Shown: piece after piece, positions 3,544 to 62,699 of the stretch
Numbering within the stretch: position 1 is the stretch's first letter
Layout of the letters: each line of letters begins with the position of its first letter
The notes under the pieces: generated by a model
Told to the model about the DNA's origin: nothing
What the model saw: only the letters and a program-made list of their open reading frames with translations
Database searches by the model: none
Position numbers and translations under genes: made by a program
From: a virus
Lineage: Duplodnaviria > Heunggongvirae > Uroviricota > Caudoviricetes
IMG/VR virus record: IMGVR_UViG_3300011972_000167
Length of the DNA stretch: 64,000 bases
Direction: 5' to 3' (one strand)

Positions 3544-5571
3544 ATGGGTAAAAAAAAGAAAACAGGTAGTAAATTAGATATGTATGATATAATATTTGCT
3601 AACTTGTTTGCTGGTACTTCCATAATAGAGCCTGAAAAGGAATTAGATAGGAGCCATATAGATATAGGTTTTTCCAATATAGCCTCTGAAAAATACATAT
3701 TAAAATATTTCTTAATAACTGGATTGCCTGACTGGTTAGATTTTCAATTATTTGACAATCTAAGAAGAAATATAATGGCTCCTGGAATAAGAGTTAACTT
3801 TTATACTTATGGAGAGCCTTATAGAATAAATTGGGAGTCCTCTGAAATGAAAAACAGATTAAGAATTTGGGAGGGTTATACTTCTGATTCTGGTAAAAAA
3901 GAAGTAAGCGGACTTAATTACCGTCTAAGAAGAAAAGATATTATAGCTAAAGAAAGAATTTTAGAGTCAACTATGTATTTGAACAGGGCGGAATTAGATT
4001 ACAGGAGAAGATTAATAAAGACAAGTTTTTTAATTGAAGTAGCTTGTCTAAGAGATTCTGAGTCTTTAGAGTATATGGTTGAAAGTATTAATGCATTAAA
4101 AAGGTATTGCATTGAGAAAGAGATTAAGTTACTTGAGTTAAGGGTTAATATGATAGATTGGCTTCAGCAACTATGGATATTCTCTTTAAGAAGTATAAAA
4201 GAGGTTTATAGGAGAGTATCAAAAAAGATATTAACTGATGATATAGTAGCTAACTTTAGTTCTTATAAGCAAGGTCGTTTAGGAGAAGAAGGAGTACCAT
4301 TAGGTTTAGATGTAAACAGTGGTACTTTAGCACTTAAAAAATTTAAGGCTAATCCTGATGCTGCTGAAAATATTTTAATAGCAGGTGGTACAGGTTCTGG
4401 AAAAAGCTTAAAGACAAAGGATTTAATATGTTGGTTAAGTGTAGACAATGTAATAACTGTTATAGACTATGATGATGAGTATAAAAACTTAGCCAACTTT
4501 ATATGTGATGGAAACCCGAAAGATGCTATTACAATAAGCATGGGAAAGGGTAGTACAAGTTACTTTGACCCTATGGAAATAGGAGATTTAACTGGAGATT
4601 CAGATATAGATGCTTCATTAAAAGAAAATGCAATGAAGTATACAATGGCAACATTTAATTTAATGATAGCTGGAGTAGATAGACAGTTGGATATGTGGGA
4701 AGAATCAGTTATAAGCACAGCTATCAAAAATGTTTATGAGAACAACTCAGTTACTGATGATAATACTACATGGAGTTTGTCTAGGGGTTGTAAGCTAGAA
4801 GATGTTTATGAGGAACTTAGGTTAATGGTAGTAAGGCAAGAGTTTGTTGATGATAACATGGATAATGTTAAGCATAAAGCTGCTGTAAATGCTTTAGAGG
4901 CTTGTAAAAAATTCTTTGAGGTTGGAGAAGCATACTATGGAACTTTTAAAAGCCCTATAAACATCAGAGATATTAGAGATGCAAGATTTATAGTATTTAG
5001 TTTCAGTAGTAACAGTACAGCGAATCAAGAAAATCCTGTTTTAGTTGGTTTAAGGCAATTAAGTGTAGCGAATTTAAGTAGTTTAATTTCAAATTACTGT
5101 AAGTATGTAAGGCATAGCTTTAATGTTAAGGTATGGGAAGAGTACAATCGTTTTGGTTTAGTTAAGGGTAGTGCTGAAATAATAGGAGATGCTATAACAG
5201 GTGGGCGTAAGCGTGGAGATATAAATTTGCTTATTACAAATGACTTAAGTAACATCTTAGATGAAACAAATCCTATAAGTGCTAGATTAGAGCAAAACTT
5301 TACTGGTTATATTATAGGGAGTATACCTAGTGATAACATAAGAGAAAAGTTTTGTAATAAGTTTAACATACCAGAAATGATAGAGCCTTTAAGAAGAATT
5401 TATAAAGCTAATGGAGAAAAGAGTAAATTCAGCAAAGCAAGAGAAAGTCAATATAAACATGCTTTTTGTGTTATAATGACTGAAACTGGTGAGAAAGCAA
5501 TAGTTAAATCTTCATTACCAAAAGAGATATTGGATTCAAAATTATTCAGAACAGGAGTAGAAAAGAAGTAA
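3544..5571 (+). CDS. VirB4/ConE-like conjugation ATPase
   Basis: Walker A in NILIAGGTGSGKS, VIDYDDEY, YFDPME, Walker B-like VWEEY and GRKRG; architecture of Gram-positive VirB4-like ATPases. Confidence 0.7.
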   Translation: MGKKKKTGSKLDMYDIIFANLFAGTSIIEPEKELDRSHIDIGFSNIASEKYILKYFLITGLPDWLDFQLFDNLRRNIMAPGIRVNFYTYGEPYRINWESSEMKNRLRIWEGYTSDSGKKEVSGLNYRLRRKDIIAKERILESTMYLNRAELDYRRRLIKTSFLIEVACLRDSESLEYMVESINALKRYCIEKEIKLLELRVNMIDWLQQLWIFSLRSIKEVYRRVSKKILTDDIVANFSSYKQGRLGEEGVPLGLDVNSGTLALKKFKANPDAAENILIAGGTGSGKSLKTKDLICWLSVDNVITVIDYDDEYKNLANFICDGNPKDAITISMGKGSTSYFDPMEIGDLTGDSDIDASLKENAMKYTMATFNLMIAGVDRQLDMWEESVISTAIKNVYENNSVTDDNTTWSLSRGCKLEDVYEELRLMVVRQEFVDDNMDNVKHKAAVNALEACKKFFEVGEAYYGTFKSPINIRDIRDARFIVFSFSSNSTANQENPVLVGLRQLSVANLSSLISNYCKYVRHSFNVKVWEEYNRFGLVKGSAEIIGDAITGGRKRGDINLLITNDLSNILDETNPISARLEQNFTGYIIGSIPSDNIREKFCNKFNIPEMIEPLRRIYKANGEKSKFSKARESQYKHAFCVIMTETGEKAIVKSSLPKEILDSKLFRTGVEKK

Positions 5572-5767
5572 AGCCTATAAAATTCACTTATTAATAGCCT
5601 ATACAAAAATCTGGTATGCATTGGATAGATTTTTAGCATAAATAAAAATCAAAATTTTGTTAGATAAAATTTATATAGTGAGTTGTAATTTTTAATTCTT
5701 TTATAAAAAATTAGAGCTTTCAAAAATTTTTTATAGAGCATTTCAGAAAAATTTAGATGCATTACTA

Positions 5768-5779
5768 GAACAAATGTTT
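5768..5779. promoter_or_regulatory. Possible LexA/DinR SOS box
   Basis: GAACAAATGTTT matches the Firmicute GAAC-N4-GTTY consensus, in an intergenic region. Confidence 0.35.
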
Positions 5780-5899
5780 GGTAAAAAATGAATGGAATTT
5801 TTCAATTAATTTTTGGGTGGAGGTTAAAGATAGGTCAAAATTAGTAGAGTTTATGAGTAATTTTGAGATTTGGGGATTTTAGGATGAGGAGATTTAGTT

Positions 5900-6049
5900 T
5901 TGTATATAATAATATTTATTTTAATGGCTGTTATAGCTTATATCAATGCTTTCAAAGATGAATTTAATGCAGAGGATTTAGCTGGAGCGAGTTTAATTAC
6001 TATTACTTTGATAGTAGTTATGATTGTAACAGTTATAGTAACTGTTTAG
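5900..6049 (+). CDS. Small two-helix membrane protein (49 aa, not in ORF track)
   Basis: GAGGAG SD, TTG start, MYIIIFILMAVIAYINAFKDEFNAEDLAGASLITITLIVVMIVTVIVTV, TAG; two hydrophobic stretches. Confidence 0.55.
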   Translation: MYIIIFILMAVIAYINAFKDEFNAEDLAGASLITITLIVVMIVTVIVTV

Positions 6050-6064
6050 GGGTGGGGGATTTAT

Positions 6065-8335
6065 ATGGATTTTGAAGATGTTGGAAGTGCAATAGAAAAT
6101 GCTAGAAACCAACCTGATTTTGAGGCTGATTTTGGAGATGACTCTGGTTTAGGTGACTTTGAGTTTGATAGTTTACCAGCTTTGGGAGATGGTTTTGATA
6201 CTGGTGGGGGATTAGGTGAAGATACCAGCTTTGGAAACTCAGGCTTTGGTGGATTTGATGGTATGGGAGAGAATACTTTAGGTGGAATGCAACCTAATCA
6301 ATCTATGGGTCAGCAAGAGCAAAAAAAGAGTTGGGATGAATCTTTAGGAGATGCCTTTGCTTCTAGTTTAAGTAGTAGTGGTAAGGTTATAAAAACATTA
6401 TTTTCTTCTATAAAAAATAGAGTAGCAGACGATTGGGCTTTATTTTCAAATAACCTGTTGATTTACAGTGGAGTACTCACTGGGGTAAGCTTAGCTATAT
6501 GGATTATAAGTATACTAATACGAATGCCTATTAGATTCAGTGGATTACCTTTGAACTCTCTTTTATCTGCTGGTTTAGGAAGTGGTAGTTCCATTATTAT
6601 TTTAAGTGGTATAGCTGGTTTTGTAACTAGAACTAATGATACTAACAGTAAAATAAGTCCAACAACTTTACCTGAAGTAGATAATGATGTAGAAACAGAT
6701 GATTTATTTGGAGATTTTGAGGATTCAACAGATGAAGAAGATACTGACGATTATGAAGATGATATAGCATCCTTATTAGATGATATTTATTCGGATAATA
6801 ACTCAGAAGAAGATGAAGAGGACAGTTACTCTTCTGGAGGATACTCTGATGACTCTAATTCTGGTGGGGATATATTTTCTCGAATGATGAATAACTATAA
6901 TTCCAGTAATGATAGGACAGCAGATATATCTGATTCAGTACCCTCTGATGTACCCATGGTGAATAGAGATTTTTTAATAAGCTTATTCAAGGGCAAGCTA
7001 TTATCTAAAACTCCAGATTTTACTAGAGTAGAGCATATAGAGGCTGGAGAAACTAGGTTCAAAGATGCAGAGGAACTTTTGATATCTTCTTATGCAGCGG
7101 CTGCTGGTAAAGAGGTAGAAGATGTAGCAACTAAAGTTTATTTGGATTCTATGACAGAAAATTTATTTTCTTATGACTTTAAGATGAAAAGGTCTAATTC
7201 AGTTAAGGTCAATGAGGATAAGTTCAGAGATGAGTTAGAGGCTTTCTTTAAGTCTGATGACATAGATGATAACAACCCTGATGCTGGCTTAGTTAATGCT
7301 ACTGTAACAAAGGAAAAGGATAAGTTTAGGATTATAATAACAAAGCCTAACATGAAAGAGATTATAGGTATAGGAGACTGTCTACAGAGAGATGAAGTAG
7401 ATAAGTTTTTCAGAAATGAAAAGAATGCTTTTCCTGTTGTTGTAGGTATTACTGAAAGAGGAGTACCAATACTAAGAGATTTTAAGATATTCAACTCTTA
7501 TATGATAGCAGGTAAGCAAAGGTCAGGTAAGTCTTGGTATGTAACAAGTACTGTTATGCAGTTACAAATGTTTAATACACCTGAGGATGTTCAGTTTGTT
7601 TATATAGACCCTAAAGAGAGTTATATGTTTAAGAGTTTAGCATTAATGCCACACTGTTGTGGATTGCATAATCATATTCATGTACTTGACATTTTACAGG
7701 ATATAATAGACAAAGAAGCCCCACGAAGAAAGAAATTATTAAAAGATAACAAGTGTGAAACAATATGGGCTTTAAGGGAAAAGGGAATAAGACTTCCTGT
7801 ACTTTATATTGTTATAGATGAGTATATGACAATAGATAGTTACCTTAAAGAAAGAGTAAGTACACTTAAAGACCAGATGAATACTATAATGTCACAGTTC
7901 CCGTCTATAGGAATAAGATTAATGTTTATTCCTCACAGAGCACAGGGAGTTGTAGATAAAACGGCAAGAACATTGATAGACTTAGCTGCCGCTGTCAAGA
8001 CTGAACAAAGCGTTGTAGAAGAGACCATAGATACCAAGAAATGGACTAGAAAACTTACAATGCCTGGTGATATCGGTATAAGGATGGGTTCAGAGATAAT
8101 GTATATTAGAGGACCTGTTTTTGAAACTTCTGATGAAAAGACAATAGAATTTATAACTCAAATAGCAAAGAGTTTTTATAAGATGGGAGTAGACATACCC
8201 GATATGACAAGTATGGGTTGCGGATATAATAGGAACGAGTCTAAAATTAAGAGTGAACTAGAATTAACTGGAGATAACTCATCCAGAGTACAGTATGATG
8301 CTAATACTTTAAGTGCAGATTTAGACAACTTATAG
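6065..8335 (+). CDS. FtsK/SpoIIIE-family ATPase (TcpA-like coupling protein candidate), membrane anchored
   Basis: Two hydrophobic segments near aa 130-190; Walker A AGKQRSGKS, VYIDPK, Walker B IVIDEY; acidic linkers. Confidence 0.8.
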   Translation: MDFEDVGSAIENARNQPDFEADFGDDSGLGDFEFDSLPALGDGFDTGGGLGEDTSFGNSGFGGFDGMGENTLGGMQPNQSMGQQEQKKSWDESLGDAFASSLSSSGKVIKTLFSSIKNRVADDWALFSNNLLIYSGVLTGVSLAIWIISILIRMPIRFSGLPLNSLLSAGLGSGSSIIILSGIAGFVTRTNDTNSKISPTTLPEVDNDVETDDLFGDFEDSTDEEDTDDYEDDIASLLDDIYSDNNSEEDEEDSYSSGGYSDDSNSGGDIFSRMMNNYNSSNDRTADISDSVPSDVPMVNRDFLISLFKGKLLSKTPDFTRVEHIEAGETRFKDAEELLISSYAAAAGKEVEDVATKVYLDSMTENLFSYDFKMKRSNSVKVNEDKFRDELEAFFKSDDIDDNNPDAGLVNATVTKEKDKFRIIITKPNMKEIIGIGDCLQRDEVDKFFRNEKNAFPVVVGITERGVPILRDFKIFNSYMIAGKQRSGKSWYVTSTVMQLQMFNTPEDVQFVYIDPKESYMFKSLALMPHCCGLHNHIHVLDILQDIIDKEAPRRKKLLKDNKCETIWALREKGIRLPVLYIVIDEYMTIDSYLKERVSTLKDQMNTIMSQFPSIGIRLMFIPHRAQGVVDKTARTLIDLAAAVKTEQSVVEETIDTKKWTRKLTMPGDIGIRMGSEIMYIRGPVFETSDEKTIEFITQIAKSFYKMGVDIPDMTSMGCGYNRNESKIKSELELTGDNSSRVQYDANTLSADLDNL

Positions 8336-8345
8336 GAGACAAAGC

Positions 8346-9668
8346 ATGATTATAGAGGAATATAAAGTTAGTTTATTAGAAATAGAAACAGCATTAGACT
8401 TAGTGGATAATAATAAAATGTTATCCACTTATTATGCAATTAAGCCTAATGTAAGTTTAGATTTAGTTGAGGGAGCTTTAGAGTTTTTGAATAATAAGAT
8501 TGAAACAAACTTAGAAGAAGATTGCTTAGAAGAAGATTTTGATGAAACAGAGGACTCTGATGATATAGCTATTGACTTAGGTGAAGAAGAGGATGACTTA
8601 GAAGAGGATGACTTAGAAGAGAATGGCATAGAAGAAAATGAAGATGATGACATAGATATTGATTTAGAGGATGAAGATGACCTAGAAGATTCTGATGATA
8701 TAGATACTGGCTTAGAAGAAGAGGATGAAATAGATATTGACTTAGAAGAGGATGACTTAGAAGAGGATTATTTAGAAGAGGATGACCTAGGGGATTCTGA
8801 TAGTGTAAGTATTGATTTAGGCGAAGAAGATGATGAAATAGATATTGACCTAGAGGAAGATGAAGATGACATAGAAGATTCCAATGACATAGATGTTAAT
8901 TTAGAAGATGACCTAGAAGATTCTGATGAAATAGACATTGACCTAGAGGATGACCCAGAAGATGATATAGATAACAATGAAGAAGAGGAAGATGATGAAA
9001 TAGACATTGATTTAGAAGATGATAACAGTGAAGATACTGTAGATATTGAATTAGACAATGAAGAAGATGAAGATGATGAAATAGACATAGATTTAGAAGA
9101 AGATGACTTAGATAATGGGGAAGATATAGATATTAACTTAGAGGAAGAAGATGAAATAGACGTTGATATAGAAGATGATAAAATAATCTTATCTAATTCC
9201 AAAAAGAATGAAGTAATAAAAGATAGCTTAGAAAATAAAAGTAAAAATGCACTAGAAAGAGTAAAAGAAGTTAATAATAGCAATAGTCAGTCTATAAAGT
9301 CAGAAGATATCAACGCAGTTTATACGGATGGTAAGAGTAAAAATGTTGACTCTATTTCAAGTACTATAAATGTAAAGCAGCTAAATCTAAATAATGATAA
9401 ATTAAATGTTGCCAGTGTTACTGGAGATGTTAATAGAGTAAATAATATTAATCAAGTTGTTTCTATCAAGAAAAGAAATTATGATTCTTTATCTACAGAT
9501 AAACTATATAACTTTGTAGCCCTTTATATGAAAAAGCATGGAGTTAAAGACTCTGGTGTAAGTAAAGCATTACTTACTGAAGAATTTGGAGCTAACAATA
9601 TTAAAAAATTGATTAATAAGTCATATTTAATACAATTATATGATGGTACTTTAACATTTAATAGATGA
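8346..9668 (+). CDS. Hyper-acidic repeat protein with possible C-terminal winged helix
   Basis: About 225 aa of DEIDIDLEED-type repeats; short basic helical C-terminal domain. Confidence 0.75.
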   Translation: MIIEEYKVSLLEIETALDLVDNNKMLSTYYAIKPNVSLDLVEGALEFLNNKIETNLEEDCLEEDFDETEDSDDIAIDLGEEEDDLEEDDLEENGIEENEDDDIDIDLEDEDDLEDSDDIDTGLEEEDEIDIDLEEDDLEEDYLEEDDLGDSDSVSIDLGEEDDEIDIDLEEDEDDIEDSNDIDVNLEDDLEDSDEIDIDLEDDPEDDIDNNEEEEDDEIDIDLEDDNSEDTVDIELDNEEDEDDEIDIDLEEDDLDNGEDIDINLEEEDEIDVDIEDDKIILSNSKKNEVIKDSLENKSKNALERVKEVNNSNSQSIKSEDINAVYTDGKSKNVDSISSTINVKQLNLNNDKLNVASVTGDVNRVNNINQVVSIKKRNYDSLSTDKLYNFVALYMKKHGVKDSGVSKALLTEEFGANNIKKLINKSYLIQLYDGTLTFNR

Positions 9669-9680
9669 TAGGAGACATAA

Positions 9681-11747
9681 ATGAAAAAAGTTAGAATAAT
9701 TATTGCACCAGTTATAGGTAGTTTATTAGTAACTGCTTGTGGTTCTTATGATTACAGTAAGATACCTTATGAGCCATTTCTTACTAGGCAAGAGGCTGTT
9801 GATTATTACTCTAATCAAATGAGTTATGACAGTATAGTTAAAAGAAGTGCAGTAAAATCAGGTAAGATAGAGTGGAATAAAGTTCCTGATAATGTAGCTG
9901 ATAAACTTTGGGCTGAAACATCTAAAGTTATAACAACTCACCAATTAAACCAAGGATATGAGGGTGAGATGACAAGATATATGCATGATTATCTTAAATT
10001 GACTTTGGATGGTTTGGTTTTAGAAGAGCCTGACGGTGGTTTTACATATACTGAAGCAGAGAACAGAGGTTATTACTTTGTAACTGTAGACTTTAAGACT
10101 AAGTTAAATAAGTTAGGTAGCTTAAAAGGTGAAGCAAATTATGTAGGAATAAATGGGGCAATAATAGATAATACTGTAGATGGAACTATAGAAGTACCTG
10201 TATTAAACACAGGATATATGACTTCTGCATTAGCTAAGATGAATGAATACAGAGAAAAGAATAGGTTAAATCCATATCCTGAGTATGGTGATTCTTTTAC
10301 TAATAGTTCCAGTGATGAGGGGGTAATTGAAACTATAGATGCTTCAGATGCTGAGGGAAATACAGTTATAGAAGAGGCTAATACAGATGAAAACAATGCA
10401 GAAACAGAGCAAGCCTTAGATGAAAATGGAAATCCTATAGAGTATACAACCAGTAATTTAGATACTGATACAGATACAAACGATTATGAATACACTGATA
10501 ATAAAGAAGAGGCTATTAATAACAGTTATGCTAACAATATAAGGCAGTTAGTTTATAATGTTAAAGAGTTTAATAAAGTAGTAGGAAGTAGTAATGAACA
10601 AATGGCAGCCGTACCCTACATTGATATGGTTTATGAGCCTGTAGAACCAATAGGAAGTTTATCAGGATACGGAGTATTTTCTGAGGGTTCTTATGGATTA
10701 AGGGATTTTGGTTATGATAGAGAAAAGTACGATACTGGAAATATAAAGATAACATTTGTATTTAAGCAGAACTCTCAAAAGAGAGATAAATTTGATTATA
10801 GCTATTGTTATATAAACGAGTATACTACTAACATACAAATGGAAGATAAGAACATTACTCAATCAAGTTATATTGATGGTGCTATAGATATAGCGATAGA
10901 AAGAGCGGATAGGGCTATTATAGATAAAGACTCCTCAGCTTTAATGGGGAAAGGGATATTTGAGCCTTCTGATTTAGGTTTAAGAGAATTAACATTAAGA
11001 AATTCAAGTAATATGTTATCTTTTATGACTAAAAGAGTTAAGACTTTAGATAGAAAAGATAAAGAGTATTTAGTTGAATTAGAAAGGACATCTGAAAGTT
11101 CTCCAAGAGGACTGGGTAACACCGCAAAATATAAAGATAAATATTATGCAGTTATAAGGCAAGATGGTGTTGATTTTAAGATAAATGACATAGTTTGGGT
11201 AAGTAGGACTCTTGAGAGAATACCTGAACCAGACGGAGATGACAGTATAACAAGAAGATTAACTTCATTAAACTTATCTGGTGAGGTTACAGACCAAGCT
11301 AAGGCTGAAATAACTGAAATGATGTCTAAGTTAGCTGCTGGTATCAATGGTAGAACTGCAAATGATAAGGTAGGAGAAGATGGAACTCCTGTATATGGAA
11401 TTTATAGCAGATTCGATGAGGATAAAGCATTGTTAAGCACAGAAAAAGGAGAGTACTTAAAGTCAAAACTTCTTACAAGGATGAACAAATATGGTTCTGA
11501 TAGGGGAGTTAGTGTAAATATTAAGTTTACTGAGTGGTTAGGTGGATACAATGACCAAGTAGAATTTGAGGTAGAAGAACTCTACTTATACGATGGTATA
11601 GACAAAGGCGTTTATGTGAAAAATTATTATTTAGTATCACATTACGGTTCTGAGTGGGTAATTGATGATATAGTTCCTATAGATGAAAAAGAAGTAAGCG
11701 GAGCGGATTTAGAGCAATATAAATCTGTTATGGGTACTAAGAATTAA
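9681..11747 (+). CDS. Lipoprotein, unknown function
   Basis: MKK + hydrophobic stretch + lipobox VTAC. Confidence 0.75.
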   Translation: MKKVRIIIAPVIGSLLVTACGSYDYSKIPYEPFLTRQEAVDYYSNQMSYDSIVKRSAVKSGKIEWNKVPDNVADKLWAETSKVITTHQLNQGYEGEMTRYMHDYLKLTLDGLVLEEPDGGFTYTEAENRGYYFVTVDFKTKLNKLGSLKGEANYVGINGAIIDNTVDGTIEVPVLNTGYMTSALAKMNEYREKNRLNPYPEYGDSFTNSSSDEGVIETIDASDAEGNTVIEEANTDENNAETEQALDENGNPIEYTTSNLDTDTDTNDYEYTDNKEEAINNSYANNIRQLVYNVKEFNKVVGSSNEQMAAVPYIDMVYEPVEPIGSLSGYGVFSEGSYGLRDFGYDREKYDTGNIKITFVFKQNSQKRDKFDYSYCYINEYTTNIQMEDKNITQSSYIDGAIDIAIERADRAIIDKDSSALMGKGIFEPSDLGLRELTLRNSSNMLSFMTKRVKTLDRKDKEYLVELERTSESSPRGLGNTAKYKDKYYAVIRQDGVDFKINDIVWVSRTLERIPEPDGDDSITRRLTSLNLSGEVTDQAKAEITEMMSKLAAGINGRTANDKVGEDGTPVYGIYSRFDEDKALLSTEKGEYLKSKLLTRMNKYGSDRGVSVNIKFTEWLGGYNDQVEFEVEELYLYDGIDKGVYVKNYYLVSHYGSEWVIDDIVPIDEKEVSGADLEQYKSVMGTKN

Positions 11748-11757
11748 TTTAGATATT

Positions 11758-11828
11758 AAGGCTATTGCTTAGGCAGTAGCCTTTTTATTTTTTTTATCTA
11801 TAAAATAGGCTTTTAATAAGCCTATTTT
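11758..11828 (+). terminator. Intrinsic terminator plus second hairpin
   Basis: AAGGCTATTGC-TTAG-GCAGTAGCCTT followed by a T tract; second stem AAAATAGGCTT/AAGCCTATTTT at 11802-11828. Confidence 0.8.
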
Positions 11829-11871
11829 TGTTTTTAATGCAAATTAGTATATTATATAAAATTAAGTTTAT

Positions 11872-13512
11872 ATGGAGGGTTTCGTTTTGAGTGTAAAGCA
11901 TCCATTATTATATAACAATATGTATATAAGTGATTTATCTTTGCAAGAGGTAAATAATATAGAGCAGGTAAGAAATGCAAATAAAATAGATGGATTAAAG
12001 AATATGATTTTTGACTTTCCGTTTGATTTGATAGAAACCAGTATAAGAGAAGATATCAGTATAAGAGAGATATTAAAGCGAGAAAATTTAGATTATAGAA
12101 AGTTTATAGGGGAGTTAAGGGATTATCAAACAGTAGGAACTGGGTTTTTATATTATTCAAGGCATAGTATACTTGGAGATGGTGTGGGTTTAGGTAAGAC
12201 GGCAGAGATAAGTGCTTTGATAAATTTATTACATCAAAGAAAAGAATTAAAGAGATTTATAATGGCTGTAGAAAATTCAGCTATAGCTCAAACTGCTGTG
12301 GAATTAACTAGGTTTACTGGTTTAAGGGTAGTTTGGTTACAGACTGACTCAGCTAAACTTAAAAGAGCAATAGAAAAGACAGATTGGGGCAAGGTAACAG
12401 GTATTATAATTAAGCATAGTGCTTTGCGTTCAGATGTATTTCAAAGGTGGTTAGCGGAGTATGCAAGACAGGATGGAACCAGTGGTTTATATGATACTTT
12501 TATATTAGATGAGAGTTCCGTTATAAAGAACAGTAAATCTAAAACTTATACTTATACTAAAAATATAGCAAACATGGCTAAAAGGGTTCATTTTATGAAT
12601 GCTACTCCCTTTGATAAGCATATACTTGATATTTACCATCAGCTTAATTTAATGGATGATAATTTATTGCCATCAGCTTGGAAGATAGAAAAAGAATTTT
12701 GTACTCACTCTAATTCTTGTTATTGGATTAAAGAAAGGAATGAGTATGGTGTAATGACACCTGTCAGAAAGCAAAGGTATGATATAAACGGTTACAAAAA
12801 TCAGGAGAAATTTAAGGAGAGGTTAAAGTTAGTTTATTTGGGTAGAGCAAGCAGTATGGTTGGACTAAGCAGACCTAATATATACTCAGTTTATACAGTA
12901 GAGCCTACTAAAGCTCAGTTAAATGCTATAGAAAATAAGCATAGATATAATGAGGTTTTGAATTGTCCCAGTTTAATACCCGAGTTAAAATTAGATACTA
13001 ATAGAAAAGATGTGCCAAAAATAGACCGTTTATGTGATTTAGTACTTAATGAATTTTCTGATAGTAAAGTTATGGTTTATTGTTTTAATATAGAGGCTCA
13101 AGAGGCTATTAAAAAAGAGTTAAATGCTTTAGGTAGAAAGTGTGTCATCTTAAACGGTAGGATGACAGGTGCTAATAAGGATTTGGATAGACTTAGAATA
13201 CAAGAAGATTTTAATAACGGAACTTATGATGTTATAATAACTAACATTAAAAAGTCATTGAACTTACAAGGAGGAGATGTTTGTATTTTTTATAATATGA
13301 GTACAACTGTAAGTAGTATGGAGCAAATTAGGGGAAGAATAGATAGAAATACAAATGATAATATAAAGACATTTATATTACTGTTGTATGGAAATACTCC
13401 TGAATATGACTTTTTTACTCAAACTGTTAAGAAAAGAGCAATGGACAGTAGGGATTTAACTATAGATGCAAAGACAGCTATAGATTTCTTTATGGATAGT
13501 TTAGAGGAATAA
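11872..13512 (+). CDS. SNF2-family helicase/ATPase
   Basis: ELRDYQ, LGDGVGLGKT (motif I), FILDES (motif II), NATP (III), SLNLQ and QIRGRIDR (VI). Confidence 0.85.
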   Translation: MEGFVLSVKHPLLYNNMYISDLSLQEVNNIEQVRNANKIDGLKNMIFDFPFDLIETSIREDISIREILKRENLDYRKFIGELRDYQTVGTGFLYYSRHSILGDGVGLGKTAEISALINLLHQRKELKRFIMAVENSAIAQTAVELTRFTGLRVVWLQTDSAKLKRAIEKTDWGKVTGIIIKHSALRSDVFQRWLAEYARQDGTSGLYDTFILDESSVIKNSKSKTYTYTKNIANMAKRVHFMNATPFDKHILDIYHQLNLMDDNLLPSAWKIEKEFCTHSNSCYWIKERNEYGVMTPVRKQRYDINGYKNQEKFKERLKLVYLGRASSMVGLSRPNIYSVYTVEPTKAQLNAIENKHRYNEVLNCPSLIPELKLDTNRKDVPKIDRLCDLVLNEFSDSKVMVYCFNIEAQEAIKKELNALGRKCVILNGRMTGANKDLDRLRIQEDFNNGTYDVIITNIKKSLNLQGGDVCIFYNMSTTVSSMEQIRGRIDRNTNDNIKTFILLLYGNTPEYDFFTQTVKKRAMDSRDLTIDAKTAIDFFMDSLEE

Positions 13513-16414: not shown

Positions 16415-17062
16415 ATGGTTAAAAAAAGTGAATTAGTTAAAGAATATTATAAAACTGGAGAACTTGCTAAAATGATAGGAAAACAAACTCGTACAGTACA
16501 GAGTTATTGTATAAGAGGAGATATTAACTCTATCATAATTCCCAGCGGAAAAAGAATTATTAGTAGAGATGAAGTTACTAAATATCTAAGAAGTTCTAAT
16601 TTATTATATGAAGATGATAACAAAATAGATTTAATCTATGCAAGAGTATCCAATAATAAACAAAAAAATAGAGGAGATTTAGACAGACAAATTGATTATA
16701 TAACAAAAGAAATAATCACTAAAAATCCTAAAAATTTAAAAGTTTTTTCGGAAGTTGGAAGTGGTTTAAGTGACAACAGAAAAGAATTAAAAAAACTATT
16801 AGATATGGTTATGAATGATGAAGTAGACAGAATATTTATTCTTTATAAAGACAGATTGACAAGATTTGGATTTAATTATTTAGAACAAATATGTAATAAA
16901 TTTGGAACTAAAATAATTGTAATATCAGAAGAAACACAAGAAAAGTCAATACAAGAGGAATTGGCAGAAGATATTATATCTATAATACATTCATTTAGTA
17001 GTGAGTTGTATGGAATGAAAAACAAGATAAAAGAAAAACTTGATAAGGAATTAAGTGATTGA
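16415..17062 (+). CDS. tnpA: IS607 transposase (MerR-like HTH + serine recombinase)
   Basis: N-terminal HTH (YKTGELAKMIG), catalytic IYARVS, DLDRQ, EVGSG, KDRLTRFG, ELAEDIISIIHSFS; start at ATG 16415 after GAAAGGAGG. Confidence 0.92.
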   Translation: MVKKSELVKEYYKTGELAKMIGKQTRTVQSYCIRGDINSIIIPSGKRIISRDEVTKYLRSSNLLYEDDNKIDLIYARVSNNKQKNRGDLDRQIDYITKEIITKNPKNLKVFSEVGSGLSDNRKELKKLLDMVMNDEVDRIFILYKDRLTRFGFNYLEQICNKFGTKIIVISEETQEKSIQEELAEDIISIIHSFSSELYGMKNKIKEKLDKELSD

Positions 17063-18297
17063 TTATGGTGTTAGTAGAAAGACATATAATAAAACATAAG
17101 CATAAATATTATAATGAACTTGATAATTTATGTTGGTTATCTAAAAATTTATATAATTCTACTTTATATAATGTAAGACAATATTATTTTGAAAATAAAA
17201 AATTACTTAAATATCAAGTTATAAATAAAATGTATGTTGATAGCAACAATATTGATTATCGTGCTTTGCCGGCTAAAGTTGCAAAGCATACTCAAATGTT
17301 AGTAGAGCATAATTTTAAGTCATTTTTTGGACTTTTGAAATTAAAGGGAAAAGGAAAATATGATAAACCTGTTAAAATAACTAAATATTTAGATAAGAAA
17401 AAAGGTAGACAAGTAGTACATTATGAAAAAGGTGCTATTTCTTTCAAAGAACAAGGTTATATAAAATTATCTAAAACTAGCATAAAAATAAAAACTAAAC
17501 TTACAAAGGATAAAGTACAGTTTGTAAGATTAGTTCCTAAGAATAATTATATAGTGATAGAAATTGGATATAAGATTAAGGAACAAGAACAAAAGTTAAA
17601 TAATAATGTTCTTGCAATAGATATTGGAGTTAATAATATCGCTAGTTGTGTTACAACTAATGGAGATAAATTTTTAATAAACGGAAAGCCATTAAAATAT
17701 GTTAATCACAATTATAATAAAAGAATAGCTGATATACAAAGCAAATTAAAATTAAAATTAAATCATAATAAAAACAACAGTAGATATAAAAGTAATATCA
17801 CAAATAAAAGAAACAACAGAATTAATGATTATTTACATAAGATAACGACTTATATTGTAAATCACACAGTTTCAAATGATATAGCAACGATAGTTGTAGG
17901 ATATAATAAAGAATGGAAACAAGATACAAATATGAGTAAGAGTAATAATCAAAATTTTGTAAATATCCCATTTTATAAATTTATTAGTATGTTAGATTAT
18001 AAATGCAAATTAAAAGGAATTAATTTTCAAACAATAACAGAAGAATACACTTCTAAATGTAGTTTTGTAGATGATGAAGAAATAGAAAAGCATATAAATT
18101 ATGTAGGAAAAAGAATAAGTAGAAATTTTTTCAGTACTAAAAAAGGAATTTTAATAAATGCAGATATAAATGGAGCATATAACATATTAAAAAAATACAT
18201 GAAAAAGAATGCGACTTGGAATGAGAAAATATCTCAAACTTTAGTTAAGGTGTGCAGTATACCTAGTGTCCGAAGGATAAATTTAAGAGTGTCTTAG
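17059..18297 (+). CDS. tnpB: TnpB RNA-guided endonuclease (IS607 type)
   Basis: KNLYN, RuvC-I AIDIGVNN, DYLHK, IVVGYNKEWKQ, EEYTSKCS, RuvC-III INADINGAYNI. Confidence 0.9.
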   Translation: MIMVLVERHIIKHKHKYYNELDNLCWLSKNLYNSTLYNVRQYYFENKKLLKYQVINKMYVDSNNIDYRALPAKVAKHTQMLVEHNFKSFFGLLKLKGKGKYDKPVKITKYLDKKKGRQVVHYEKGAISFKEQGYIKLSKTSIKIKTKLTKDKVQFVRLVPKNNYIVIEIGYKIKEQEQKLNNNVLAIDIGVNNIASCVTTNGDKFLINGKPLKYVNHNYNKRIADIQSKLKLKLNHNKNNSRYKSNITNKRNNRINDYLHKITTYIVNHTVSNDIATIVVGYNKEWKQDTNMSKSNNQNFVNIPFYKFISMLDYKCKLKGINFQTITEEYTSKCSFVDDEEIEKHINYVGKRISRNFFSTKKGILINADINGAYNILKKYMKKNATWNEKISQTLVKVCSIPSVRRINLRVS

Positions 18298-22442: not shown

Positions 22443-23516
22443 ATGGACTTAGGTTTAGATGGAGTAACTAGGGAGAATATGTCAATAGCAGGGTTGTATG
22501 TGGATAGAAATAACCCTGTAGAAACATTAACTTTCAGTAATTACAGGAACTTCAGTAAATTCAAATTATATAATATTGAGAAAGTTAAGTTGTGTTACTT
22601 TCCGAGTTTTGAGATAATAGATGTAAGTTTATCGGAGTTTATGGAGTTTTATAAAAGTACAGATACAAACAGTGATTTATATAAGAGGAGCAGATTAAAT
22701 ATAGATGGAACTAAGCTTATTCTTAATTGCCTTAAAGTTTGTATAGAGTCTGATATTTATGATACTACATATTCTTACAGATGCCATTCTTATAGTGGAG
22801 GTTTGTGTGTGCATTACTTGACTGATTTAGGTCATATTTGTATTTTTGATATAAATACGGGTATGCCTATAAAAGAGGCTGATTATGTTCAATTCGCAGT
22901 TAATGTAGTTAAAGGTTTATTTTATTCTTCCAAGTTAAATAAGCTTATTTTTAGTTATAATATACTTAATTATTTTGGTTTAAGCGAAAGGCATTCTCTT
23001 AATAGAGTAGAAATAGCTAGGCTAAATGGTGAGCCTAATCATTCTACAGTAAATAGTAAAGTACCTGTGCTATCTCGCACAACTTTAGATAAATTTGTAG
23101 AGCATTCTAATGGTTTTACTATTCTTTTAGATATTTGTGCTTTTAGTTTGGAAAAGAATGAAGATTTAGTTATAGTTAATCAAAATTGTAGAGAGTTGTA
23201 CATAAAAAGCAATGGAGATTATATAATAAATAATTTGGTGTTGAATAAGAGTATAGAGAATATAAAAGTTAATGGTAATTTTTCAGTAAAAAACTTATAC
23301 TACAGCAAAGATATTAAAAATAGCATAGTGATTTTTAAGGTTGTAAGGTATGTAATATCAGCTTATGCATTGATACCTCGTAAGAACTATATGAATAAGT
23401 TAGAGCAATTAATAGATAAGAATAACTTATATGGTTTAGCTAATTGTGAGTTTGAGAAAGAGGATGGTAGTATATTGATACTTAAAGATTTAATTAATAT
23501 ACAAGCAATAGATTAG
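22443..23516 (+). CDS. Paralogue family member 7
   Basis: IAGLYVD...FEIIDVSL; VIVNQNCRELYI...LVLNKSIENI...LYYSK. Confidence 0.6.
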   Translation: MDLGLDGVTRENMSIAGLYVDRNNPVETLTFSNYRNFSKFKLYNIEKVKLCYFPSFEIIDVSLSEFMEFYKSTDTNSDLYKRSRLNIDGTKLILNCLKVCIESDIYDTTYSYRCHSYSGGLCVHYLTDLGHICIFDINTGMPIKEADYVQFAVNVVKGLFYSSKLNKLIFSYNILNYFGLSERHSLNRVEIARLNGEPNHSTVNSKVPVLSRTTLDKFVEHSNGFTILLDICAFSLEKNEDLVIVNQNCRELYIKSNGDYIINNLVLNKSIENIKVNGNFSVKNLYYSKDIKNSIVIFKVVRYVISAYALIPRKNYMNKLEQLIDKNNLYGLANCEFEKEDGSILILKDLINIQAID

Positions 23517-51232: not shown

Positions 51233-51997
51233 ATGGATAAGGTTGATTATAAATTAAGTTCTTATGATTTAGATATACTACAGGGTTATGGTTATAGTAC
51301 TAAGTTTTGGGTAGATGAAAATGGAAAGCAATATTTAATTAAGATAGATACTCCACTACATGAGTCATTAAATGAGTATGCTTCCAGTCAATTAGCTTTA
51401 ACATTTTGTATAGACTGTGTAGTTTATGAGAAAATAAAAGTAGATTTGGATGGGTATGAGTATAGTGCTATCAAGTGTGAGAGTTATATTAAAGAAAATG
51501 ATGAAGAGCATACGGTATACAATATAATAAGAGAGTTTCCAAAACAAAAATTATTAAGTGCAGAAAAGTTTATTTGGTTATTAGATAGGCTATCTGAAAA
51601 AACAGGTGAAGATAAAGAGTACTTAAGAAATGGATTATTAAAAATAGCAACTTTTGATTATATAGTTTGCAACTTAGATAGGCACTTAAATAACATAGTA
51701 TTATTAAAATCTGATAAAGGTTACAGATTTTCACCTTTGTTTGACTTTGGAAGAACATTTGCAGGAGCCAAGGACATAAAAACTGATTCAGATATACAGT
51801 CAAGATTGAGAGAGTATTACACTATAAATAAAAGTATAATGAAAGAAATACAGAATATGGATATTGATTATAGTAAGAAACTTGTTAAGGAATGGTTAGA
51901 CACTTGTAATGGATATAAAGCCATAGATAATTTAGATATAGACTTAGGATATAAGAAATTGATAAAATACAGAATAAAACAGATATTAAGTTTATAA
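51233..51997 (+). CDS. HipA/CtkA-like Ser/Thr kinase domain protein 1
   Basis: GYSTKFW, YLIK, ESLNE, DYIVCNLDRHLNNI, FSPLFDFG. Confidence 0.8.
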   Translation: MDKVDYKLSSYDLDILQGYGYSTKFWVDENGKQYLIKIDTPLHESLNEYASSQLALTFCIDCVVYEKIKVDLDGYEYSAIKCESYIKENDEEHTVYNIIREFPKQKLLSAEKFIWLLDRLSEKTGEDKEYLRNGLLKIATFDYIVCNLDRHLNNIVLLKSDKGYRFSPLFDFGRTFAGAKDIKTDSDIQSRLREYYTINKSIMKEIQNMDIDYSKKLVKEWLDTCNGYKAIDNLDIDLGYKKLIKYRIKQILSL

Positions 51998-52009
51998 GGA
52001 GGATACAAA

Positions 52010-52384
52010 ATGAATATTATTGAATTTACTATAATGCACTGTGATACTAAATTAGTTGATATAAAGTTAGATTATGCAATAGGTAAATTAATAAGTTATC
52101 ATTTATACAAAGAGTGTCCACACTTAATAAAAATCTGTATTTGTGATTTTGATAATAAAACTGTTGTATACAGAGCATTAATAGACTGGTTAAAAGATAG
52201 GACAATACCAGAAGAAAGGGTCAATAGAGATTACATAATTAAAAAGGCTTATGGATTAAATCCCAATTTTGCTAATTTATTTGTTTTATTAGGTGTAGAC
52301 CATGGTGTTAGTGTACTGGATGACTTTTGGATTAAGTTTAGTGGAGAGGACATTAGATATGCAGATGTTAGAGTTAAGTACTAG
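52010..52384 (+). CDS. Small protein resembling a HipA N-terminal subdomain (HipS-like)
   Basis: WLKDRTIPEER...GVSVLDDFWIK, resembling the region preceding the kinase domain in Firmicute HipA-like proteins. Confidence 0.55.
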   Translation: MNIIEFTIMHCDTKLVDIKLDYAIGKLISYHLYKECPHLIKICICDFDNKTVVYRALIDWLKDRTIPEERVNRDYIIKKAYGLNPNFANLFVLLGVDHGVSVLDDFWIKFSGEDIRYADVRVKY

Positions 52385-53114
52385 CAATATATTTGGTTCT
52401 TATAGTTTAGGTGAGCAGTATAAATGTTGGCTTAATATAAAAGGAGTTAAACATCTTATCAAGATAAATACCAATTACAGAGAGTCACTAAAAGAAGTAA
52501 CTGCTTATAAATTAGCTAAAGCATTTGGGATACCTTGTGTAGAATATAAAGAGATACAAGTTAAATTTATGGGCTCTATCAGAAATGCCTGTATATGTAA
52601 AAGTTATTTAAGGGATAAAGAAAATAGCATAAGTTTATGGGGCAGTTTAGGTAATAGGTTTACTACAAAGAGAGGAGAGTCAGCCATTAGTTTATTTGAA
52701 AGAATTATAAAAAGCATTTCTTATAGACTAGGAATAAATGAAAGAAGTTTAGCTGATTATATAAAAACTATTTTAACATTTGATTATATCATCTGCAATA
52801 CAGACAGGCACTTAAACAACATAAGTTTTATAGAAAACAATGGTATTTACAGATTTGCTCCGATATATGATAATGGAAAATCTTTTCTAAACACAGATGG
52901 AGTATTAACTGACAGTGATTTAATATCAAGGAGCAATAAATATAAATCAAAGCCTTTTTCAAGTAATCCAAAGTCTAATATTATAGATAAGGATTACAGT
53001 AAAATTTTGGTAAATAAATGGTTAGAACATTCTGGGTGTTTAGATAGGCATATAATAAATAAAGGACATTTGAAGATAATAAAATACAGAATTAATAAGC
53101 TATTGAACTTATAG
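52359..53114 (+). CDS. HipA/CtkA-like Ser/Thr kinase domain protein 2
   Basis: GEQYKCW, HLIK, ESLKE, DYIICNTDRHLNNI, FAPIYDNG; start moved to ATG 52359. Confidence 0.8.
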   Translation: MQMLELSTSNIFGSYSLGEQYKCWLNIKGVKHLIKINTNYRESLKEVTAYKLAKAFGIPCVEYKEIQVKFMGSIRNACICKSYLRDKENSISLWGSLGNRFTTKRGESAISLFERIIKSISYRLGINERSLADYIKTILTFDYIICNTDRHLNNISFIENNGIYRFAPIYDNGKSFLNTDGVLTDSDLISRSNKYKSKPFSSNPKSNIIDKDYSKILVNKWLEHSGCLDRHIINKGHLKIIKYRINKLLNL

Positions 53115-60790: not shown

Positions 60791-60819
60791 TTGACAAGTA
60801 TAAGTTTATTTGTTATAAT
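60791..60819 (+). promoter_or_regulatory. Consensus sigmaA promoter of the RNA operon
   Basis: TTGACA-17 bp-TATAAT, extended -10 TG, A-rich upstream region. Confidence 0.88.
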
Positions 60820-60854: not shown

Positions 60855-60888
60855 TTAACCAGTTAAGGCTCTGGTCTAACAAAAGCCT
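60855..60888 (+). repeat. Pseudoknot-forming repeat copy 1
   Basis: TTAACCAGTTAAGGCTCTGGTCTAACAAAAGCCT; 33/34 identical to 61279-61312. Confidence 0.85.
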
Positions 60889-60889
60889 T

Positions 60890-60934
60890 AGTATAAAAGA
60901 TGGTTTTTATCAGGTTCAATTCCTGATTATACTT
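60890..60934 (+). ncRNA. Anticodon-less mini tRNA-like element 1
   Basis: Acceptor AGTATAA/TTATACT, T-arm TCAGG-TTCAATT-CCTGA, 13-nt connector containing TGG. Confidence 0.7.
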
Positions 60935-60989: not shown

Positions 60990-61039
60990 TAGATACTTGC
61001 AGACGGGCATTAAGATTGGTTCAAATCCATTGTATCTAA
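60990..61039 (+). ncRNA. Anticodon-less mini tRNA-like element 2
   Basis: Acceptor TAGATAC/GTATCTA, T-arm ATTGG-TTCAAAT-CCATT, D-like TGC-AGACGG-GCA. Confidence 0.65.
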
Positions 61040-61135: not shown

Positions 61136-61208
61136 GCTACCATAGCTCAGTCGGTAGAGCGTACGGCTGTTAACCGTATTGTCATAGGTTCGAGTCCTAT
61201 TGGTAGCG
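61136..61208 (+). tRNA. tRNA-Asn (GTT), no encoded CCA
   Basis: GCTACCA/TGGTAGC, D-arm GCTC/GAGC, TACGG-CTGTTAA-CCGTA, ATAGG-TTCGAGT-CCTAT. Confidence 0.95.
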
Positions 61209-61278: not shown

Positions 61279-61312
61279 TTAACCAGTTAAGGCTCTGGTA
61301 TAACAAAAGCCT
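61279..61312 (+). repeat. Pseudoknot-forming repeat copy 2
   Basis: TTAACCAGTTAAGGCTCTGGTATAACAAAAGCCT. Confidence 0.85.
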
Positions 61313-61318
61313 GTATAA

Positions 61319-61391
61319 AGCAGGATAGAGCAAATGGTAGCTCACTGGATTCATACTCCAGAGGTTATAGGTTCAAGTCCTATTCCTGCAA
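61319..61391 (+). tRNA. tRNA-Met (CAT), initiator-like, no encoded CCA
   Basis: A1:A72 mismatch above GCAGGA/TCCTGC, D-arm GAGC/GCTC, CTGGA-TTCATAC-TCCAG, ATAGG-TTCAAGT-CCTAT. Confidence 0.9.
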
Positions 61392-61460
61392 TAAGCACTT
61401 TGTGCTTCTTGTAACATATTTATTCCTTTCTTCAGGCTACCGTGAGGTAGCCTGAAGTAT

Positions 61461-61575
61461 GGCAAAGTAGTTTAATGTAAAACAAATAGGCACTTCCTTG
61501 TATTGATAACTTCATTACAAATATACTCATCACAACAACTACCTATTGATTAGGGTGCAAGTCCCTACTTTGCTA
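61461..61575 (+). ncRNA. tRNA-like RNA with 51-nt expanded anticodon loop
   Basis: GGCAAAG/CTTTGCT acceptor, TA-GTTT...AAAC D-arm, AATAGG/CCTATT stem enclosing 61491-61541, TAGGG-TGCAAGT-CCCTA T-arm. Confidence 0.75.
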
Positions 61576-61713
61576 ATTGCCTTCTTAGGCATAAAAGACT
61601 CCATTTCAATTTTTTGGGTAGGATAGGTTAGCTGATAAATTATCCTTTTAAGTTTTTAATGTTGTTTTATGTTTTTTAGTATACCATATAAACAGCTAAC
61701 CTATCTAAAATAA

Positions 61714-61797
61714 ACAGGTATGGCGGAATAGGTAGACGCAGAGGACTTAAAATCCTCTTATAGAAATATAGTGCCAGTTCAAGTCTGGTTATCTGTA
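61714..61797 (+). tRNA. tRNA-Leu (TAA), no encoded CCA
   Basis: ACAGGTA/TATCTGT, GCGGAATAGGTAGACGC, GAGGA-CTTAAAA-TCCTC, long variable arm, GCCAG-TTCAAGT-CTGGT. Confidence 0.93.
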
Positions 61798-61874: not shown

Positions 61875-61900
61875 AAGGCACTGGTTTCAGTGCCTTTTTA
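61875..61900 (+). terminator. Intrinsic terminator closing the RNA operon
   Basis: AAGGCACTG-GTTT-CAGTGCCTT + T tract. Confidence 0.85.
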
Positions 61901-61922
61901 ATTTTTAAGGAGAAAATAGTTT

Positions 61923-62699
61923 ATGAGTACTAACTTATTAGGTATGCTTAGAAAAATAGAATCAGATAATAGTATAGAAATTATATTTGCTTGTGATATA
62001 GGCAGTAGAGCATTAGGATATTCTACTGAAAACAGCGATTATGATATCAGATTTATTTATATACAACATTCTAAAAAGTATCTAACTATAGATAAAAATA
62101 AATTTAATGATACAATTAAATTTAATAAAGACAATTTAGATTTTATAGGATATGACATTAAAAAAGCGTTAAATTTCTGTTTAACTTCTAATACAGCTTT
62201 GTGGGATATGATTTACTCAAGTTCTGTTATTTTAGAAACTAGCTTATGTAATGATATTAAGAATATAGCTAAAAAGTTTTTTAATAAAAAGACTCTTATA
62301 AAGCAATATACAGCTAATGCTTATAACAGATATACTAAATACATACTAAATAAAGATACTGTTAAAATAAAGGATTATGCTTTAACTTTAGTAAAGCTAG
62401 CTTTAGCTATAGCTATTTCAAGAGATACTTTTAATAAAGATACTGTGATTAAGGCAAATTTATCAAATTGTTTTAGCATATACCCAAAAGATATGTCAAA
62501 TACTTTAGAAAATTTAATAAAGCTTAGATTAAGAGGTAATGAATACACACAAAGGATAGAATTATTTGATAATTACATTAAATATTATATAGAAATACTT
62601 GATAAAATAGAAAAGACTTTAGTTTATGATACATCAGATAATAATTTAGATGAATATTTTTATAAGTTAATAGTGTTTAGATTAAGTAAAGGTAAGTAG
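61923..62699 (+). CDS. Pol-beta superfamily nucleotidyltransferase (YcgL/RlaP-like)
   Basis: GSRALGYSTENSDYDIRFIY, YDIKKAL. Confidence 0.8.
   Translation: MSTNLLGMLRKIESDNSIEIIFACDIGSRALGYSTENSDYDIRFIYIQHSKKYLTIDKNKFNDTIKFNKDNLDFIGYDIKKALNFCLTSNTALWDMIYSSSVILETSLCNDIKNIAKKFFNKKTLIKQYTANAYNRYTKYILNKDTVKIKDYALTLVKLALAIAISRDTFNKDTVIKANLSNCFSIYPKDMSNTLENLIKLRLRGNEYTQRIELFDNYIKYYIEILDKIEKTLVYDTSDNNLDEYFYKLIVFRLSKGK

Follow-up and report, generated by a model that had tools for sequence, protein, structure and literature searches.

The question raised by this locus is what a tRNA-shaped RNA could be for when it carries a long loop in place of an anticodon. Such an element is present at one place in the window, the whole stretch of 64,000 nt that was analysed, and three of its parts are referred to below:

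61461..61575, + strand: tRNA-shell RNA gene, identified from its sequence, its parse and seven orthologues
61485..61547, + strand: anticodon-position stem of 6 bp (61485-90/61542-47) enclosing the insert, identified from pairing over eight copies
61491..61541, + strand: lineage-specific insert of 51 nt, with a hairpin (61498-61520) followed by a G-free single strand (61521-61541)

The original prediction described a tRNA scaffold in which the acceptor, D and T arms are all preserved and the T loop reads TGCAAGT; these features were read directly from the sequence and parsed. The acceptor stem (61461-61467/61568-61574) contains 7 bp, six Watson-Crick pairs and one G-U, and is followed by U8-A9 and by a D stem of 4 bp (61470-73/61480-83) whose 6-nt loop has a single G and no GG. 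The variable region is 3 nt long, the T stem has 5 bp (61551-55/61563-67) and the discriminator is A61575; CCA is not encoded. The element has no anticodon and cannot read codons. The three arms stand in the cloverleaf order of a canonical tRNA (RF00005), but the canonical 7-nt anticodon loop with U33 and a purine at 37 is missing, the loops of this family being 32-51 nt long. The stem predicted around 51 nt and the hairpin within it were also found. The inner hairpin folds with -5.8 kcal/mol (z -3.9, equalled by 1/200 shuffles) and the whole element gives a z of -2.6, again equalled by 1/200 shuffles. The cloverleaf, at -20.8 kcal/mol, is not the minimum free energy fold and lies 2.7 kcal/mol above it (-23.5 kcal/mol).

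Orthologues were searched for by alignment of the 291-aa protein encoded two genes downstream, which yielded 20 metagenome and three viral loci. Eight metagenome loci had a marker protein 71-99% identical; one of them (L081) is without upstream DNA, leaving seven that could be tested. L101 repeats the element of L087 and was counted once, and five loci at 28-29% identity were left out. The element was present in 7/7 testable close relatives (marker protein 71-98% identical), always at the same place, between tRNA-Met and tRNA-Ser/Leu, and was absent within 4-5 kb of the marker gene in 9/9 more distant loci (51-53% identity). The check proposed with the original prediction, whether the loop varies among homologues, gave a clear answer, as four loop types of 32 to 51 nt are carried on one covarying frame: type A of 51 nt (window and L082), type B of 50 nt (L083, L086 and L087), type C of 45 nt (L084 and L085) and type D of 32 nt (L088). 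Below the loop, the stem is paired in 54 of its 56 cells over the eight copies, with four unrelated sequences and two to four pair types per position. The two strands of a given lineage form 6-7 pairs, whereas cross-lineage combinations form 2-5 pairs in 11 of 12 cases. The stack of acceptor and T stems is constant at 12 bp, with a 7/5 split in three copies and a 6/6 split in five; a stack of 13 bp including position -1 is a possible reading in some copies. The acceptor end is G1-U72/A73 in two copies and G1-C72/U73 in six. The variable region is 2-3 nt across copies and the T loop is usually UGCAA; G55 is found in 7/8 copies, the exception being L082, a 98% relative with the T loop TTCAAGT. 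A tRNA frame observed at L106-L108 resembles the element in its acceptor and D arm but has an anticodon loop of 9 nt.

The element was missed by ARAGORN at default settings and by Rfam, both at the gathering threshold and at E<=10, and ARAGORN reported it solely at threshold 70, amid 223 calls that were mostly spurious. A descriptor composed after the element had been seen (acceptor, D arm, a 5-bp stem around at least 25 nt, and T arm) matched once in the 64-kb window and never in 30 dinucleotide shuffles, both strands being scanned. An exact scan for the T arm gave 46 loci, none of them homologous, and scans of single-protein loci gave no homologue of the element. With blastn, the operon or the element matched only tRNAs or short AT-rich pieces among phages and plasmids. 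A family pattern had two matches in 185,579 genomes, both ordinary tRNAs, and none in eight distant records. A 34-nt loop match to Lak phages (E 0.009) was dismissed as chance, loops B and C matching unrelated phages similarly weakly. No description of the family was found in the accessible papers. tRNA-like genes of such a shape escape standard tRNA and Rfam annotation.

Failure of ARAGORN and Rfam to call the element, the D loop without GG and its absence from the nine more distant marker loci and the eight distant records might indicate a decaying tRNA pseudogene or an assembly artefact. However, independent assemblies share the element, with compensatory changes and low divergence within lineages. 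Since it occupies the same place in all seven testable relatives, with four loop types and a covarying stem, misassembly and recent disruption are excluded, and the orthologues are not normal tRNAs, which contradicts the refuting case considered at the outset, that of a normal tRNA recently disrupted or misassembled. Decay or artefact appears largely refuted by covariation and is extremely improbable. Very probably the locus is a genuine gene for a tRNA-like RNA that does not decode and is under selection.

The element lies in a predicted non-coding operon of ~1.07 kb without long ORFs, delimited by a promoter and a terminator-like hairpin, which contains in addition three tRNAs, two anticodon-less minihelices and two pseudoknots:

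60791..60819, + strand: predicted operon start, a perfect sigma-70-type promoter (12/12, with TG) by consensus match only
60858..60888, + strand: compact H-type pseudoknot, copy 1, 31 nt, 1 nt before minihelix 1
60890..60934, + strand: minihelix 1, anticodon-less, with a 7-bp acceptor, a T arm and a 13-nt middle
60990..61039, + strand: minihelix 2, anticodon-less, with a 7-bp acceptor, a T arm and an 18-nt middle
61136..61208, + strand: tRNA-Asn(GTT)
61282..61312, + strand: compact H-type pseudoknot, copy 2, 31 nt, 6 nt before tRNA-Met
61319..61391, + strand: tRNA-Met(CAT)
61430..61457, + strand: leader hairpin of 12 bp, separated by 3 nt from the 5' end of the element
61578..61591, + strand: short trailer hairpin, resembling those behind tRNA-Asn and minihelix 1, found in 8/8 copies
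61714..61797, + strand: tRNA-Leu(TAA)
61875..61906, + strand: predicted intrinsic-terminator-like hairpin at the operon end
61923..62699, + strand: RlaP nucleotidyltransferase gene (PF10127, E 4e-35), next after the operon

A hairpin at the leader position was found in 8/8 copies, with differing sequences and energies of -16.6 to -22.6 kcal/mol, and hairpins flank the element as they flank true tRNAs. RlaP adjoins five of the eight copies and is absent beside the other three; it is hence a neighbour but not required. Several further RNAs were observed in these operons. The pseudoknot has 24 more copies in L082-L088 besides the two in the window; it consists of a 5-bp stem, a 3-4-nt loop, a second 5-bp stem that covaries and an A-rich loop of 7-8 nt, often lies 1-13 nt upstream of a tRNA or minihelix, and has no Rfam match. 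It may mimic a type III antitoxin: its topology is similar to that of type III antitoxin pseudoknots as presented in the accessible part of PMC4627078, but here the copies are not in tandem and are without a match in Rfam. Anticodon-less minihelices or short-armed tRNA frames recur across the tRNA operons of the replicon family (L083-L096, and L190:870-1650 in the complete relative G001), and minihelix-type frames also occur in loci without the long-loop element. Between the element and tRNA-Leu, a 13-bp perfect inverted repeat around 58 U-rich bases (61622-61705) is possibly another cargo RNA. In L088, a RAGATH-18 RNA lies immediately upstream of the operon (L088:951-1011).

The placement of the insert exactly at the anticodon loop, together with RlaP, a member of the RNA-repair polymerase-beta family, 350 nt downstream, could suggest a tRNA with an unusual intron spliced by an unidentified route, perhaps aided by the RlaP protein. 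An unusual intron-containing tRNA had been raised with the original prediction. Excision was modelled as single events in eight registers for each of the eight copies, and 0/64 gave a canonical loop (Y32-U33...R37); no anticodon was common to the copies. Positions 32 and 38 pair in 8/8 copies, the three copies without an adjacent RlaP argue against splicing aided by it, and no Rfam intron matched the element. Because no splice register restores a normal anticodon loop in any copy, we do not regard the element as an intron-containing tRNA, a reading that is very unlikely. The catalytic core of a group I intron takes up at least about 200 nt; the earlier rejection of that class holds, since the inserts are 32-51 nt long and have no Rfam match. 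tmRNA is recognised by a G3-U70 alanine acceptor, a D loop without a stem and a tag frame with pseudoknots. The element has C3-G70 and a 4-bp D stem, and neither ARAGORN nor Rfam reported a tmRNA, in agreement with the earlier view that it is not one.

Conservation of the loop was compared within and between lineages. Within lineages (three pairs), 2/146 loop bases changed compared to 43/481 four-fold sites (Fisher p 0.0008). The operon spacers are likewise conserved relative to synonymous sites (p 3e-7), and loop and spacers do not differ significantly (p 0.24); as the loops are not more conserved than the spacers, their low divergence may be operon-wide. Between lineages, the frame is 78-92% identical (73-97% for the tRNAs) and the loops are 45-67% identical, only the A-B alignment beating shuffles (1/500). 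The inner hairpin reaches significance in type A and, to a weak degree, in type D alone; it is not conserved across the four types, and neither is the C/A strand. Every loop is poor in G (3-16%), has a pyrimidine content of 57-67% and folds weakly at its 3' side, where the final 18 nt contain 0-2 G.

The single strand had been noted as complementary to an SD+ATG-like sequence, and this complement is literally there, CAT (61528-30) and CTACCT (61539-44) being separated by 8 nt. However, three of the six anti-SD bases are inside the stem, the match is no better than in shuffles, and it is absent in that form from the other loop types. The anti-SD core is partly within the stem in types A, B and D. 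Anti-SD words showed no clear enrichment in the operons: one of 16 tests reached 10/300, and T arms contain that word. In the window, the longest perfect complement to the insert is 11 nt, the same as for shuffled inserts, and for type B the longest complement in ~33 kb of its own replicon, 11-12 nt, does not exceed chance. The 3' 24-mers of loops B, C and D, a segment picked after inspection of the data and scored here against the genes of another lineage, paired with 48 start regions of the window at a mean of -10.6 to -11.3 kcal/mol, values at the upper end of what the operon gives as background (median -8.0, best -11.3, n=115); type A was at the background median. Dinucleotide shuffles matched type A in 48/100 cases on the mean and 20/100 on the best value, and types B, C and D in 32, 13 and 19/100 on the mean and 38, 1 and 10/100 on the best; mononucleotide shuffles matched B, C and D on the best in 0, 1 and 1/40. 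Pairing to translation starts is thus mostly compositional, reflecting dinucleotide content, and the loops exhibited neither preferential pairing nor cognate covariation with the neighbouring genes of their own replicon. Three candidate targets were rejected. The RlaP start has a 7-nt match that is not conserved. The ATPase start at 3544 is the best for type A but is equalled by 20/100 shuffles, and the ATPase start of the type B replicon mismatches loop B. The start of the 291-aa gene pairs with A and C, but in the loci that carry B and D its pairing with the loop is poor. Combined, these results retain the scaffold part of the idea of a tRNA-stabilised antisense RNA or aptamer; the pairing is mostly explained by dinucleotides, complement and hairpin are not conserved, and the search found no target.

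The 12-bp stack of acceptor and T stems and the elbow are the features that RNase P and RNase Z recognise. The operon would be transcribed as a single RNA, which these two host enzymes would cut wherever a tRNA-shaped unit occurs, giving a stable, non-decoding RNA; processing of the element by RNase P is suggested by its 12-bp stack and G+1 only. The CCA-adding enzyme would then complete the 3' end. The tRNA frame would stabilise the cargo loop and display it on the anticodon stem, by analogy with the engineered scaffold described in the accessible part of PMC3753655. Our tentative preference, held at somewhat below even confidence, is that the element is a tRNA-scaffolded antisense RNA, its loop being a protected strand that would pair with the purine-rich translation-start regions of a few mRNAs, and that differences of the loop between lineages would mirror changed targets. 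We infer only weakly that the cargo is antisense and that a change of lineage is a change of target. This reading is ranked first owing to the composition of the loop, its pattern of conservation and turnover, and a precedent, the C4 RNA of phages P1 and P7, which, according to the accessible part of PMC5320573, is processed by RNase P and blocks ribosome-binding sites with a variable specificity loop.

Two other readings are considered mainly because loop-less frames share the same operons. The element may be a tRNA mimic or decoy whose function resides in the frame, with its acceptor and elbow, which would bind host proteins that recognise tRNA, such as tRNA-attacking toxins or sensors of uncharged tRNA, the loop being a filler that avoids decoding, or a bait for nucleases. 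Such a role would explain why the frame is kept while the loop turns over and is conserved no more than the spacers, and it is consistent with the two further anticodon-less frames in the window operon, the up to four in relatives and the six, with middles of 14-34 nt, in the distant complete relative G001. We rank it second and hold it less likely than not, given that acceptor identity varies (two copies with one end and six with the other) and that short versions exist alongside, which would make 32-51 nt needless. The frame could alternatively be a signal for RNase P and RNase Z that frees the neighbouring hairpin and pseudoknot RNAs, the element itself being a by-product, for which mascRNA provides a comparison. 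The conserved 12-bp stack and the flanking hairpins, the conservation of the spacers and the pseudoknots lying shortly before tRNAs or minihelices would fit. True tRNAs already flank the element, though, a minihelix would suffice, and a full D arm and a 7-bp covarying stem have been retained, so that we consider such punctuation unlikely. As one syntenic, covarying frame carries four loops and stands beside frames without loops, the functions of frame and loop are separable by swaps. Returning to the antisense reading, a wider and more speculative version, to which we give about one chance in a few, is that regulation in pXO16-like giant plasmids includes an operon made of RNA genes only, in which the frames would be scaffolds and cutting signals and an exchangeable antisense guide would be retuned per lineage against host mRNAs or their own. 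If true, it would amount to a naturally occurring sRNA system, reprogrammable and built on tRNA scaffolds, and would provide the first function for tRNA-like RNAs of the T4/T5 type.

The element is a variant within a class of tRNA-like RNAs known in outline, and its family is itself conserved. Like the members from T4 and T5, it has a tRNA frame without a usable anticodon inside a tRNA operon. Among known RNAs, the nearest to it are RNA1 (T5s03) and RNA2 (T5s06) of phage T5 (NC_005859), annotated as 'tRNA-like stable RNA with unknown functions'. Both lie in a tRNA operon and keep the acceptor, D and T arms while an extended domain replaces the anticodon loop; their sequence similarity to the element is not beyond shuffles (100 and 35/300 as good). 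They differ in having largely paired inserts and variable arms, whereas the element has a mostly single-stranded, G-poor loop, a variable region of 2-3 nt, a T loop that is usually UGCAA and a plasmid-like replicon. In T4 (NC_000866), species 1 RNA (rnaC) and species 2 RNA (rnaD) are small stable RNAs of the tRNA cluster. Of the two, rnaC terminates in a T arm and has its long arm near the 5' end, unlike the loop of the element at the anticodon position. The local score of rnaC against the element was reached by 1/300 shuffles, in one of six comparisons and likely due to the shared T arm, and rnaD had none above shuffles. The family offers a natural experiment on tRNA-like stable RNAs, a class annotated in T4 and T5 as of unknown function. 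C4 is a functional analogue, as it is stable, comes from a mobile element and has a specificity loop that varies and is directed at ribosome-binding regions; as given in the accessible part of PMC5320573, it has ~77 nt, three stem-loops and two short loops, and its target is linked and known. The element differs by its full tRNA frame, its one long loop and the lack of an Rfam C4 match. The engineered tRNA scaffold, in the accessible part of PMC3753655, has the same design, with arms kept and cargo in the anticodon stem, and the element is a natural case.

A degenerate pattern of D and T arms, in which the acceptor was left unspecified, retrieved 27 viral loci, and the acceptor pairs over at least 6 bp in 19 of them. 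A stem of 5-7 bp around 46-55 nt is present in 15 of these 19; one is an orthologue and 14, all with encoded CCA, belong to three other sequence groups. These 15 long-loop frames indicate that the architecture is widespread. Long-loop tRNA frames that belong to other families and have UGCAA T loops were observed in unrelated viral contigs (L056-L078, 14 loci; L053, L059, L069, L055, L065, L073 and L076), and one such group has 11 members with a common frame and a varying loop of 46-48 nt. In L001 and 26 similar loci, close to the tRNA clusters of small phages, a minihelix-like element with a TGCAAGT loop follows a stop codon.

The identity of the replicon was assessed from its proteins. IMG/VR lists such records as viruses. 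The TraG/HerA-like ATPase of the window (weak Pfam hits) had no match in 50,697 phage records; its best plasmid matches were pBTHD789-1 and the like (28.7% identity over 93%, E 2e-51), and pBTHD789-1 is pXO16 of Bacillus thuringiensis according to the accessible part of PMC6199540. The replicon resembles pXO16 in the gene order ATPase, FtsK/SpoIIIE, hypothetical protein, helicase (29-31% identity), in having its genes on one strand and in a size of several hundred kb. Unlike the replicon family, pXO16 gave no tRNA match; identity is low, and transfer of the replicon is putative. Virion families were found for none of 25 selected window proteins. In G001, a complete distant relative of 264.6 kb (ATPase identity 56%), the 172 ORFs of at least 170 aa gave no capsid, portal or sheath match, two partial-domain matches to tail or virion proteins and one 47-aa terminase match on the ATPase; its six anticodon-less frames are short, and no long-loop frame like the element was found there. 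Inocle elements were set beside the replicon by descriptions only (size, GC and VirB4/VirD4). From these comparisons of genes, we infer that the replicon is probably a pXO16-type giant plasmid rather than a phage. If so, the tRNA-like RNA class is not tied to lytic infection.

The pXO16-like module (ATPase, FtsK/SpoIIIE and helicase) occupies 3544-13512 of the window and has 39 relatives among viral contigs that reach 295 kb in length; this suggests that many giant plasmids, forming one large family, are catalogued as viruses. An ARAGORN call of tRNA-Ile at 22810-22908 is probably false; it lies inside an ORF (22443-23516), folds as a long hairpin and has no Rfam match. A gene of a transposase family (PHROG 506) is present at 17059-18297, and a neighbouring pair of genes with HipA-like kinase domains is found at 51233-51997 and 52302-53114.
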